Shown here: positions 2-63,312 of the stretch, piece after piece
Position numbering within the stretch: the stretch's first letter is position 1
How the letters are laid out: every line of letters starts with the position of its first letter
Assembly: GCA_016198685.1 (NCBI GenBank)
Contig: JACQID010000004.1
Coordinates: forward strand, 117,864 to 181,863
Reading direction: 5' to 3'
DNA length: 64,000 nucleotides
Origin: Candidatus Aenigmatarchaeota archaeon
Lineage (GTDB): Archaea; Aenigmatarchaeota; Aenigmatarchaeia; GW2011-AR5
The notes under the pieces: generated by a model
Told to the model about the DNA's origin: nothing
Databases searched by the model: none
Seen by the model: only the letters and a program-made list of their open reading frames with translations
Made by a program: the position numbers and the translations under genes

Positions 2-1603
2 AAGGCCGTTATACAGGTCTATGAAGATACATCAGGCATTGCGCCGGGAGAACCGGTGGAAACAACAGGAATGCCGCTTATGGTAGAACTTGGGCCTGGA
101 ATACTCAATAACATATACGACGGAATTCAGAGGCCGTTGCCGGAATTGCAGAAATTGATGGGCGATTTCATAAAGCGTGGCGCAAGCGTCAATTCCTTGG
201 ACAGAAAGAAGAAATGGAAATTTATCCCTTCACTGAAGAAGGGCGAGGAAATCACAGAGGGTGAAATTCTCGGCACTGTAAAGGAAACAAACACGATAGA
301 GCACAGAGTGCTTTCGCCATGCTCCGGAAAAATCGACGAGATAAAGGAAGGATCATATACTGTTGAAGAAACAATAGGCAAGGTAGGCGGCAAGGAAATT
401 ACTCTTATGCAGCGCTGGCCTATCCGTGCTGCAAGGCGCGTAAAGGAGAAGCTTGTTCCGGATACGCCACTTATAACCGGAATAAGAATACTCGATTCGC
501 TTTTCCCCCTGGCAAAAGGAGGAACCGCCTCGATTCCGGGACCATTCGGAGCGGGAAAAACAGTGACCCAGCAAAGCCTTGCGAAGTGGAGCGATGCCGA
601 TATAATAGTTTATGTGGGATGCGGCGAGCGAGGCAATGAGATGACCGAGGTACTTGTGGAATTCCCTGAGCTGATAGACCCGAAGTCCGGAAATCCTCTT
701 ATGGAAAGAACAACTCTCATAGCAAACACAAGCAACATGCCTGTTGCAGCAAGAGAAGCCTCAATATACACCGGCATAACTATAGCCGAATATTATAGGG
801 ACATGGGTTATGACGTAGCATTGATGGCCGACTCTACATCGCGATGGGCTGAAGCCATGCGTGAAATCTCTTCCAGAATGGAGGAAATGCCAGGAGAAGA
901 AGGATATCCCGCTTATCTTTCCGCAAGACTTTCAGAATTCTATGAAAGAGCAGGCAAGGCGATATTACTTAGCGGCAGCATGGGTTCAATAAGCATAATC
1001 GGTGCTGTATCACCTCCAGGCGGCGATTTCTCAGAGCCTGTGACACAGTCAACGCAAAGAATAACGAAAGCTTTCTGGGCTCTGGATGCGGCGCTTGCAA
1101 ATAGAAGGCATTTCCCGTCCATAAACTGGATGAATTCCTATAGCCAGTACGAATCTTCTCTTGCGCCGTGGTATAATGAGAATATCACTCCGCAATGGAC
1201 TACTATCATAAGCAAAGTGAAGAAAATACTCTCAGAAGAGCAGAGGCTGCAAGAAATAGTTCAACTCATAGGCTCAGATGCGCTGCCCGAAAAAGAGCAG
1301 TTGACTCTGGAAGTAGCAAGACTGATAAGGGAATTCTTCCTTCAGCAGAACGCATTCCATGACGTTGACAGCTACTGTGCTCCTGCAAAAAGTGCAAGAA
1401 TACTGCAGTCAATATTGTACTTTGAGGAAAAAGCACGCGCTGCAATAGAGGCAGGCGTGAGTGCAAGGGAAGCCGTTGCTATAAAATCGAAAAACAAAAT
1501 AGGCGACGCCAAGTTCTATAAAGATTACGAAAAAATATTGAATGAAGCTGATGCCGGAATGGAAAATGAAATAAACGAGATGGTGAGGAAAAATGCTGCT
1601 TAA
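2..1603 (+). CDS. atpA: A-type (A1AO) ATP synthase catalytic subunit A, 5'-truncated at window edge
   Basis: Frame is open from position 2 ([33 protein letters not shown]...). Walker A GPFGAGKT and [13 protein letters not shown] are present. Stop TAA is at 1601-1603. The ORF track shows only the part from the first internal Met. Confidence 0.9.
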
Positions 1604-3634: not shown

Positions 3635-4537
3635 ATGGCGCATCATGTAAAGGGCAGTCTCATGTTTGATGACGGAATCAAGGTCCCTACAGGAATGAAG
3701 TATGGAAGCGATTTTTCTCTTAAATTATCGTATGTGCCTGTGAGCAAGGAAGGCACGCCTGTTGTGTATAAAGGGCGGTTTGATGTGGACTGTTTCGATC
3801 TAACTCATTCCGTCAAGGACATGGTATCATCTCATAATGTTCCTGTCATGACAAAGGGTCTTGTACATGAAGGACATAGTGAAGGTGAAATATCCGAGGC
3901 AAATCCTCTTCTTATTACATTGAGAATAAAAGAAGACAGGCTAAGCAGGCCTCCTTCCCAAAGGCAACCTATGCTAGGTTTTGCGTATGTATCTACCAGC
4001 GAAACCGACGAGTTCCTGAAAGAATTAGGGAATTCCTTCAATCCAGAATATCTAGGGGCGGCTTTAGAAAAGATACGACAGAACATAAAATACGGCACGG
4101 AAGCGGAGAATCTTCTTGATGATATTGTACTAAATAGAACAGGCATCTGCAAGGATTTTGCGTGTCTTCTGGATTATGCGGTGAAAAAGGTCGGAGGTAT
4201 TTCTGATATCGCCAAGGGCAGAGCAATGAATCTGCGTGTCAGAGACATACCGGTCTTTCGTACGATAGATGAGGGGGCATACGGTTTCCATGGCTGGAAT
4301 GAAATTTACCATAATGGTAAGTGGAATCTTGTGGATCCTACAATCTACACAAATTCTCCAGATGAAGTCAAAGAACGAGCGATAAATGAAGTACGCGACA
4401 TTTATTTTCTGGAGCCGCCCGTACCCTCGATTTATCTTATAGACGGGCTTAAAGTGTCGGTGAATAAGGGCATGATTATATTGAACGAGCCACTAGTGAC
4501 AGCAAACCTGGTTTCATGCGAAATAGCCGATAAATAG
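3635..4537 (+). CDS. transglutaminase-like cysteine protease superfamily protein
   Basis: Cys-His-Asp core motifs GICKDFACLLDYA and FHGWNEIYHNGKWNLVDPT. 300 aa. Follows atpD after a 41-nt gap. Confidence 0.6.
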   Translation: MAHHVKGSLMFDDGIKVPTGMKYGSDFSLKLSYVPVSKEGTPVVYKGRFDVDCFDLTHSVKDMVSSHNVPVMTKGLVHEGHSEGEISEANPLLITLRIKEDRLSRPPSQRQPMLGFAYVSTSETDEFLKELGNSFNPEYLGAALEKIRQNIKYGTEAENLLDDIVLNRTGICKDFACLLDYAVKKVGGISDIAKGRAMNLRVRDIPVFRTIDEGAYGFHGWNEIYHNGKWNLVDPTIYTNSPDEVKERAINEVRDIYFLEPPVPSIYLIDGLKVSVNKGMIILNEPLVTANLVSCEIADK

Positions 4538-4979: not shown

Positions 4980-5279
4980 ATGATGCAATTCTGTGAGTGT
5001 GGCGGCATGGTAGTTTCTTCAGGCGAGATTTCAAAGTGCCGCAACTGCGGCAAGGCTCAGGCCATGAAAGCGCAGAAGATAACGACGCACTCCGAAAAAA
5101 AGAATACCATAGTCATAGAAAACAACAAGCCGGATCTGCCTGAGACCGATGTCCAGTGCCCGAAATGCAGCCATAGCCGGGCTTATTGGTGGCTTATCCA
5201 GACGCGTTCTTCAGATGAGCCTCCGACCCAATTCTATCGCTGCACAGAATGCAAGCATACGTGGAGAGAATACAAGTAA
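4980..5279 (+). CDS. tfs: transcription factor S / RNA polymerase subunit M-like zinc-ribbon protein
   Basis: N-terminal Zn ribbon FCECGG...CRNCG. C-terminal TFIIS-type ribbon CPKCSHSRAYWWLIQTRSSDEPPTQFYRCTECKHTW. The track ORF starts at TTG 4965; the first ATGs are at 4980/4983. Confidence 0.8.
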   Translation: MMQFCECGGMVVSSGEISKCRNCGKAQAMKAQKITTHSEKKNTIVIENNKPDLPETDVQCPKCSHSRAYWWLIQTRSSDEPPTQFYRCTECKHTWREYK

Positions 5280-5637
5280 AACGATAAATATTAACGATAA
5301 AATAATAGTTATATGGATTTTCGGAAAGTGCTTGAAGCATTCATGTCCCCCAGTCCGGCTCCTAATTTTGGGGATGATTATACAGGACCAGTTACGTTTG
5401 CAAACGCTTACTCCAGTCCCGGGATATTTTCGGATGACGGGAGACGTGAATTCGACCGTGCAGCTATCGGCTTATTGAGCGACCCCGATATAGGAATAGA
5501 CGTTAAATACGGAAAATTTCTGCATACAAAATGATGGACAATGGAAATCTATTGCCAGTGGTTGAGCAATTGAAATTGGGGGATCCATGTAAGTTATACC
5601 GTATACGTTTTGGTGAAAGCCGGCGAGGGAATATGAA

Positions 5638-36085: not shown

Positions 36086-36238
36086 TGGGGTCGGGAGGAT
36101 TTGAACCCCCATTAGCTGGTTTCTTCTAAATCATCGCCGCTTGCGCGGCTCTTAGCTCCAAAAGAGCCTCTCGGCCTGTCTTTTTACGGAAAGACCGGGA
36201 CTGGAGCCAGCGATCCTGCCTGGTTAGACTACAACCCC
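36086..36238 (-). tRNA. tRNA-Trp (CCA) with ~80-nt intron at canonical 37/38 position
   Basis: Acceptor GGGGTTG/CGACCCC. Anticodon stem GCTGG/CCAGC. Loop CTCCAG|A. T-arm GGGGGTTCAAATCCTCC. Intron contains hairpins GGCTCTT...AAGAGCC and GCCGC-GCAA-GCGGC. Confidence 0.75.
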
Positions 36239-62826: not shown

Positions 62827-62933
62827 TGGGCCCGACGGGATTCGAACCCGCGACAGTCGGCTTTCTGCGGGCCCGGTGCCCTGCTGGCACAGGCTTAAAA
62901 GGCCGATGCTCTACCAGGCTGAGCTACAGGCCC
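62827..62933 (-). tRNA. tRNA-Lys (UUU) with 33-nt intron at canonical 37/38 position
   Basis: GGGCCTG-TA-GCTCAGCCTGGTAGAGC-A-TCGGC-CTTTTA|intron|A-GCCGA-CTGTC-GCGGGTTCGAATCCCGT-CGGGCCC-A. All stems pair. Confidence 0.75.
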
Positions 62934-62956: not shown

Positions 62957-63059
62957 CGCCCTGGCCGGGAAATTCAAGATGATGCGGTCTGCAGCATCTT
63001 TTTGAACCCGGGTCGCAGCCTTGACAAGGCTGCATGCTAGGCCGCTACACCACCAAGGC
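62957..63059 (-). tRNA. tRNA-Asp (GUC) with ~30-nt intron inside the T-loop (position ~59/60)
   Basis: GCCTTGG-TG-GTGTAGCGGCCTAGCAT-G-CAGCC-TTGTCAA-GGCTG-CGAC-CCGGG-TTCAAA[AAGATGCTGCAGACCGCATCATCTTGAATT]T-CCCGG-CCAGGGC-G. Removing the 30 nt restores a 7-nt TTCAAAT loop. Confidence 0.65.
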
Positions 63060-63164
63060 AACAGAGAAACATAGATTCAAGTAAAATATTAAAACTCATA
63101 AAGAATAGTCTTAAATCTAGTCCCCAATCCACACACCCTCCTGACGCAATCGCTTAATTATAAT

Positions 63165-63301: not shown

Positions 63302-63312
63302 TTTATTTAAAA
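63302..63312 (-). promoter_or_regulatory. archaeal BRE/TATA promoter for the 5S rRNA
   Basis: On the minus strand, AAAC-TTTTAAATAAA is centred ~26 nt upstream of the 5S 5' G. Confidence 0.45.

Follow-up and report, generated by a model that had tools for sequence, protein, structure and literature searches.

The locus described here raises the question whether a tRNA-Asp gene of which the T-loop is interrupted by 30 nucleotides can still give rise to a functional tRNA. It lies in a stretch of 64,000 nucleotides of archaeal DNA, referred to below as the window, and had been described in an earlier note, made from the letters alone, as a tRNA-Asp(GUC) gene with an intron at the non-canonical position 59/60. 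What is found here is very probably a functional tRNA-Asp(GUC) gene with an intron, belonging to a Candidatus Aenigmatarchaeota (DPANN) archaeon; we infer its transcription and the cleavage and ligation of its transcript. The gene occupies exactly the span that had been claimed, on the minus strand. The coordinates of its parts, of its neighbors and of the related intron modules are listed in Table 1.

Read from its 5′ end, the gene runs GCCUUGG-UG-GUGU-AGCGGCCUA-GCAU-G-CAGCC-UUGUCAA-GGCUG-CGAC-CCGGG-UUCAAA-[AAGAUGCUGCAGACCGCAUCAUCUUGAAUU]-U-CCCGG-CCAGGGC-G, and all four stems of the cloverleaf (4/4) can be read from it. The variable region, CGAC, has 4 nt, and the 5′ exon contributes U54 to A59 to the T-loop. 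The insert AAGATGCTGCAGACCGCATCATCTTGAATT was present at 63000..62971, as stated before, with exact 30-nt boundaries and exactly at position 59/60. When it is deleted, ARAGORN calls the resulting 73-mer as tRNA-Asp(gtc), in agreement with the isotype given earlier, and a T-loop of 7 nt, TTCAAAT, is restored, also as proposed. Compared with the intronless orthologue L018, the in silico spliced 73-mer is equal in length and identical at 59 of 73 positions. The identity elements of tRNA-Asp known from the yeast and E. coli systems are the anticodon GUC, G73 and the G10-U25 pair; all of them can be read in the sequence, as G34, U35 and C36, as the discriminator G73 and as G10 opposite U25. CCA is absent from the encoded 3′ end and would therefore be added post-transcriptionally. 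Neither another copy of the intron, allowing at most three mismatches, nor, using Rfam at the gathering threshold and at E ≤ 10, any further cryptic tRNA fragment was found in the 64-kb window.

Table 1. Position of the tRNA-Asp gene, its splice motif and its neighbors in the window, and of the shared intron modules in the loci compared (numbered L).
Feature	Coordinates	Strand	Details and basis
tRNA-Asp(GUC) gene	62957..63059	minus	G1 at 63059, G73 at 62957; 103 nt with intron
5′ exon, tRNA positions 1-59	63001..63059	minus	acceptor GCCUUGG, D arm, anticodon arm, T stem CCGGG
Anticodon GUC	63023..63025	minus	sequence read and ARAGORN call of the spliced form
30-nt BHB intron between positions 59 and 60	62971..63000	minus	AAGAUGCUGCAGACCGCAUCAUCUUGAAUU; single occurrence in the window
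3′ exon, tRNA positions 60-73	62957..62970	minus	U60, T stem CCCGG, acceptor CCAGGGC, G73
BHB central helix, 5′ strand (exon)	63003..63006	minus	U54 U55 C56 A57; motif scan
BHB central helix, 3′ strand (intron)	62973..62976	minus	UGAA; motif scan and covariation
5′ bulge AAA	63000..63002	minus	A58, A59, intron base 1; predicted cut after A59
3′ bulge UUU	62970..62972	minus	last two intron bases and U60; predicted cut before U60
Inner helix h′, 5′ strand	62995..62999	minus	AGAUG, running on into a small hairpin
Inner helix h′, 3′ strand	62977..62981	minus	CAUCU
TATA-like box	63086..63093	minus	TTTAATAT; read from the sequence, 27-34 nt upstream of G1
5S rRNA	63281-63165	minus	Rfam, 71.4 bits; 105 nt upstream of tRNA-Asp
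tRNA-Lys(UUU)	62827..62933	minus	anticodon-loop intron of 33-34 nt; Rfam, 59.8 bits; ARAGORN -i
rpoH	62813-62577	minus	Pfam Rpb5_C
rpoB	62574-59287	minus	unsplit
tRNA-Trp(CCA)	36086-36238	minus	anticodon-loop intron of 80-84 nt; Rfam
Module CCCUUU(U)...CGGAAA in T-loop introns	L008:2330-2359, L026:2926-2956, L019:1996-2028		
Module CCCUUU(U)...CGGAAA in anticodon-loop introns	L012:2994-3029, L015:1525-1558, L016:913-944, L022:3116-3152, L023:619-652		
Module CCCUUU(U)...CGGAAA downstream of tRNA-Asp, around the adjacent tRNA-Lys	L016:1054-1084 and 1238-1268		
Module GGAUCAACCCCAAAGAAC			anticodon-loop introns of L006, L013 and L017; D-loop intron of L019; tRNA-Lys introns of L013 and L022

The host could be assigned by means of RNA polymerase. 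With residues 1-500 of RpoB as query, 26 genome contigs were matched, and each of them is from Candidatus Aenigmatarchaeota or from an unnamed archaeal MAG. The best match (95% identity) is on contig JAGVVY010000006.1 of an Aenigmatarchaeota MAG. These matches place the source of the window within this DPANN phylum. The genes on the minus strand follow each other in the order 5S rRNA, tRNA-Asp, a spacer of 23 nt, tRNA-Lys, rpoH, rpoB, rpoA′ and rpoA″. In most of the Aenigmatarchaeota loci compared, tRNA-Asp and then tRNA-Lys precede rpoB. The 5S rRNA gene stands alone, as the 700 nt that remain of the window contain no 16S or 23S gene, and it has a TATA-like box of its own (TTTAAATA, 63304-63311 minus, 23-30 nt upstream). 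A linkage of 5S rRNA with tRNA-Asp is also known from Thermococcales. The box TTTAATAT is the putative archaeal promoter of tRNA-Asp. Since no comparable TATA-like element is present in the 23 nt ahead of tRNA-Lys, both tRNAs are probably located on one transcript. Between the ATG of rpoH (62813) and the tRNA-Lys 3′ end (62827) there are only 13 nt, a GGAGG among them, which leaves no space for a separate promoter. The two tRNAs and rpoH-rpoB-rpoA′-rpoA″ may form a single transcription unit, in which tRNA processing would free the mRNA. Elsewhere in the window, a small ORF (4982-5280, plus strand) resembles by eye a zinc-ribbon transcription factor S/RpoM-type protein (CxxC...CxxC); the mechanical ORF list holds only spurious-looking ORFs around it.

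The earlier suspicion that standard tRNA finders would fail on this gene proved justified. ARAGORN does not call the unspliced tRNA-Asp gene in the window, either in the default or in the intron mode (-i), and the Rfam model RF00005 gives no more than a partial match in a permissive small-region search, at 19.6 bits compared to a gathering score of 29. The only genes in the window that the Rfam tRNA model recognizes above this score are tRNA-Lys(UUU) and tRNA-Trp(CCA). tRNAscan-SE 2.0 has dedicated bulge-helix-bulge (BHB) models for non-canonical introns, the training of which was based on Crenarchaeota/Euryarchaeota and Thaumarchaeota (PMC8450103). An annotation that relies on ARAGORN or Rfam would consequently list tRNA-Asp as missing in this DPANN lineage, and a gene missed in this way could lower the apparent completeness of a genome or hint at odd decoding, while a BHB-aware search finds it.

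Whether the insert can be removed depends on the structure at its junctions. Canonically, the archaeal motif has a central helix of 4 bp with a 3-nt bulge on either side; its exon strand consists of four nucleotides after which the exon has just two more, and its other strand comes from the 3′ portion of the intron (PMC4090602). An unbiased motif scan of the locus found a strict hBHBh′ motif at the junctions, in the register proposed earlier, with an outer helix of 5 bp, a central helix H of 4 bp, an inner helix of 5 bp and an intron of 30 nt. The T stem CCGGG/CCCGG (49-53/61-65) itself provides the outer helix, while the inner helix AGAUG/CAUCU belongs to the internal hairpin of the intron, which had been suggested to be part of a BHB. 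A cut after the second nucleotide of both bulges joins A59 to U60 and leaves UUCAAAU as T-loop, the predicted splice junction being ...GGGUUCAAA joined to UCCCGG.... When the 30 intron bases were shuffled (200,000 trials), the chance of obtaining an H of 4/4 together with an inner helix of at least 5 bp was 4e-5.

The unspliced gene folds well as a whole, with a minimum free energy (MFE) of -47.4 kcal/mol (z = -3.77; none of 200 shuffles as good), and the tRNA stems as well as the intron hairpin form in this structure. The central helix of the BHB is open in the MFE structure; enforcing the motif gives -43.8 kcal/mol, a cost of 3.6 kcal/mol, and the pairs of the central helix have probabilities of 0.15-0.18 in the nearest-neighbor energy model. 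Such a low predicted stability is usual for a short, bulge-flanked helix that is stabilized by the enzyme. As the MFE structure leaves the central helix open, folding energy is not counted in favor of the BHB, and the support for the central helix is comparative.

The closest comparison is with four syntenic loci, L001-L004, in which RpoB is 95-84% identical to that of the window. In all four, the T-loop of tRNA-Asp is interrupted by 28-29 nt at the site known from the window. Their spliced exons are highly similar to those of the window (73/73 identical positions in L001, 72/73 in L002, 68/73 in L003 and 67/73 in L004). The intron interiors have diverged, with a hairpin retained in each; next to the bulge, AGAUG/CAUCU is replaced by AGA/UCU, GG/CC or AAGCG/CGCUU. 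Constrained exons combined with an intron that drifts while its pairing is kept are the signature to be expected of a spliced intron, and not of a decaying pseudogene.

For the phylum as a whole, 21 recognizable tRNA-Asp orthologues of Aenigmatarchaeota were compared, the window included. Thirteen of these have an insert at 59/60, with a length of 28 to approximately 116 nt (the window, L001-L005, L008, L012, L015, L017, L019, L020 and L026). Other introns in the 21 genes are located in the anticodon loop (11), the D-loop (8) and the variable region (1); L018 has none at all, and several orthologues have three. In L005-L026, the sites used are the D-loop after A14-G15, the anticodon loop at 37/38, the variable region (L023 only) and the T-loop at 59/60. 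Examples of these orthologues, which lie upstream of rpoH/rpoB and have 0-3 introns per gene, are L019:1825-2066, L020:425-611, L015:1458-1642 and L023:546-729. The orthologues in which the T-loop is uninterrupted (L018, L013, L016, L022 and L006) have UUCAAAU or UUCGAAU, in exact agreement with the loops expected after splicing according to the BHB rule. Moreover, L012 combines the loop sequence UUCG with CGAA in the intron, which is compensatory with respect to UUCA/UGAA.

To extend the comparison, metagenomes were scanned with the pattern GGGTTCRAA-N(16-46)-YCCCGRCCRRGGCG, which yielded at least 120 stretches; together with the genome loci, these represent 121 distinct sequences. At least 103 distinct tRNA-Asp-like genes carry an insert of 16-46 nt at 59/60, with a GUC anticodon loop upstream and a T stem paired at 5/5 positions. 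Among the matches listed, 85 of the 103 tRNA-Asp-like T arms have a central helix with all four pairs. Of the other 18 pattern matches listed, most of which lie in GC-rich flanks that do not resemble a tRNA, a single one (1/18) is fully paired, and this is L027, a tRNA truncated by the end of its contig. In the 104 T arms listed (the 103 and L027), position 54 forms U-A in 98, position 55 U-A in 83 and U-G in 21, and position 56 C-G in 103. Position 57 covaries with its intron partner, being A-U in 48 and G-C in 38 of these 104 listed arms. A formal count on 50 distinct cores gave pairing in 96.2% of the cells, and neither the observed pairing nor the covariation was matched in any of 500 shuffles (0/500). 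Sliding the partners by one column reduces pairing in the central helix from 96% to 68% or less. Finally, when the BHB cutting rule is applied to single-intron genes, ARAGORN calls tRNA-Asp in 50/50 after splicing vs. 13/50 before.

The inner helix is less general. Among the matches listed, 47 of the 103 metagenomic genes have at least two contiguous pairs starting from the junction, and it is not universal in the wider family because many metagenomic introns are relaxed or minimal, with 16 nt. The metagenome loci (L027-L146) include a group with such minimal introns, e.g., A-UCGCACGGA-CGAA-AA, and a group from soil and peat with GC-rich introns and a central helix UUCG/CGGA containing a U-G wobble. 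Approximately 90 genes start with GCCC, mostly GCCCUGG, among the matches listed. The 21 sampled Aenigmatarchaeota orthologues start with GCCUYGG or GCCUCGA, and GCCCUGG occurs in none of them (0/21). The GCCC-type metagenomic tRNA-Asp genes probably belong to other lineages.

These data bear on three other ways to explain the locus. The first is that it is a pseudogene, a tRNA-Asp inactivated by an insertion of 30 bp in its T-loop that is neither spliced nor used. The silence of the standard finders would fit, as would the failure to find a splicing enzyme gene within the 64-kb window. However, the exons are intact and identical to those of L001, and the intron evolves yet keeps its helices. 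Furthermore, the sole register that gives back a 7-nt T-loop is also one with a strict BHB, and the architecture is retained, with covariation, in 13/21 orthologues and in at least 103 distinct metagenomic genes. Introns are also present in the adjacent tRNA-Lys and in tRNA-Trp of the same window, so the organism must splice tRNAs. A pseudogene is therefore very improbable. The second possibility, that splicing never takes place and the tRNA works with the insert kept in the mature RNA, as an extra arm or as part of a larger T-loop, deserves still less credence. It can draw on the predicted MFE fold, which has all four tRNA stems with the insert as a side hairpin of the T-loop, but a T-loop of 37 nt would break the U54-A58 and the D-loop/T-loop interactions of established tRNA structure. 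In addition, the insert length differs between orthologues (16 to about 116 nt), and conservation falls on the 3′ YGAA-NN of the intron pairing with U54-R57, as is needed for a splice signal and not for an extra arm. Finally, the BHB scan also returned a register with GUUC/GAAU as central helix (outer helix of 4 bp, inner helix of 6 bp, 32 nt excised), which was rejected and is just as hard to credit, since it would leave a 4-bp T stem with a T-loop of only 5 nt, UUCAA, which is not a functional T arm, whereas only the 30-nt register yields the UUCAAAU of intronless orthologues and the 30-nt rule holds in 50/50 homologues.

For a functional, intron-containing tRNA-Asp gene, the following pathway can be proposed. 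The gene would be transcribed, probably jointly with tRNA-Lys, from the TATA-like box approximately 30 nt upstream. In the precursor, the T stem would act as the outer helix, U54-A57 with the intron UGAA as the central helix and the intron hairpin as the inner helix. According to established EndA biology, the endonuclease would bind the BHB regardless of the tRNA body and cut after nucleotide 2 of each bulge. Given this strict motif, cleavage should not require an endonuclease of broadened specificity. An RtcB-type ligase would then join A59 to U60, as expected from archaeal tRNA biology (PMC4090602). An association with more frequent disruption of tRNA genes has been described for α4-type DPANN endonucleases that carry an additional "L3" loop (PMC5829648); the same paper names Aenigmarchaeota in passing only.

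The enzymes themselves were searched for in the window, which covers 64 kb of the genome. No EndA or RtcB domain was found in 20 window ORFs (two Pfam batches of 10), and tblastn of the window with a putative Methanocaldococcus jannaschii EndA sequence as query gave no significant match. One EndA candidate, at 3674-3751 (E = 0.073), was discarded, as it lies in an ORF without an EndA domain, the sole Pfam match of which is transglutaminase-like and sub-threshold (22.0 vs. 23 bits). The introns of tRNA-Lys and tRNA-Trp in the same 64 kb imply nevertheless that the splicing machinery exists in this organism. The scan found no strict hBHBh′ at 37/38 in these two introns, and by hand their central helix has 3/4 pairs. 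Of the three introns, that of tRNA-Asp thus shows the best BHB, a ranking that suggests tolerance of relaxed motifs by the endonuclease. In the long intron of tRNA-Trp, no clear C/D boxes were seen by eye.

How does this intron compare with known systems? Position 59/60 is already listed among the non-canonical intron positions of archaea (PMC4090602). Like the introns described there, the Asp intron lies outside the anticodon loop, is of the protein-spliced kind, shows the succession helix, 3-nt bulge, 4-bp helix, 3-nt bulge and helix, and leaves a canonical cloverleaf upon excision. It differs in its host, a member of the DPANN (Aenigmatarchaeota), while the classic cases are from Crenarchaeota (Thermoproteales), Nanoarchaeota and Thaumarchaeota, and in its motif, which has the strict form compared to the relaxed HBh′, hBH or BHL forms. 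With canonical 37/38 introns, such as the one of the neighboring tRNA-Lys(UUU), it shares the motif logic and the expected processing by EndA and an RtcB-type ligase. However, its central helix is built from T-loop positions 54-57 and its outer helix from the T stem, whereas canonical introns use bases 32-35 of the anticodon loop, and its central helix is perfect, unlike those of the Lys and Trp introns of the window. A third comparison is with the circularly permuted tRNAs of Thermofilum pendens (iMet and Tyr) and Cyanidioschyzon merolae, which are joined at 59/60 (PMC3218864). These have the T-loop 59/60 junction and a BHB at the exon junction in common with the tRNA-Asp gene, but the latter is colinear, with a simple intervening sequence. 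Both the intron type and the position are thus known already. A literature search returned no paper describing tRNA introns in Aenigmatarchaeota specifically, and to our knowledge such an intron has not been described before in this lineage.

Outside the window, the orthologues reveal shared intron modules. An alignment of eight sequences defines a module CCCUUU(U)-variable hairpin-AAAAGCG-NNNN-CGGAAA with 18 invariant columns, occurring in T-loop introns, in anticodon-loop introns and around an adjacent tRNA-Lys. It is not present in the 64-kb window. Its distribution suggests a mobile or transposed intron family. A second shared module contains ...GGAUCAACCCCAAAGAAC..., with a CCCUUUYCUU/AAGAAAGG hairpin ahead of it, and is found in different tRNAs at different positions. 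In Thermoproteales, proliferation and transposition of introns have been proposed (Fujishima et al., 2010, as far as summarized in PMC4090602). The relatives of the window resemble that case, as their tRNA-Asp genes have 0-3 introns and a shared module occurs at differing positions and also in tRNA-Lys. Differences are the phylum, the lack of the shared module in the 30-nt intron of the window and the basis of the transposition inference, which consists of eight aligned sequences. Judged by the genes compared, tRNA gene disruption in this DPANN phylum is apparently at a Thermoproteales-like level. A more speculative idea, which we regard as somewhat doubtful, is that tRNA introns were gained and moved in Aenigmatarchaeota in a burst resembling that of Thermoproteales and that the 30-nt intron of the window is a stripped-down descendant, located at a "universal" 59/60 docking site that recurs across many archaeal lineages.

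The intron had also been put forward as a lineage-restricted, taxonomically useful marker, a view that can be kept in part. The window and L001-L004 (RpoB 84-95%) uniformly have a single T-loop intron of 28-30 nt. Across the phylum, however, its occurrence is patchy (13/21), and the same site is used in at least 103 metagenomic genes, about 90 of those listed starting with GCCC. As a taxonomic marker, the 59/60 intron is consistent only at shallow depth.

Altogether, the current understanding of archaeal tRNA splicing is unchanged, and for specialists the finding is an ordinary one. Aenigmatarchaeota join the lineages with non-canonical tRNA introns, and the gene provides a clean example of a strict BHB at 59/60 for which many comparative sequences are available. 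The recurrence of this position would be explained by the T arm itself: as it consists of a helix followed by UUCRAA-Y, an intron that ends in YGAA-NN completes a BHB in nearly any tRNA. Its use in tRNA-Asp genes that differ widely from each other agrees with the notion that half of a BHB is supplied by the T arm, which would make the position an easy landing site; this notion also touches on why permuted tRNAs join at 59/60. What remains of most interest is found beyond the window, in the tRNA-Asp genes with up to three introns and in the module common to anticodon-loop and T-loop introns, which hint at mobility of the kind proposed for Thermoproteales.
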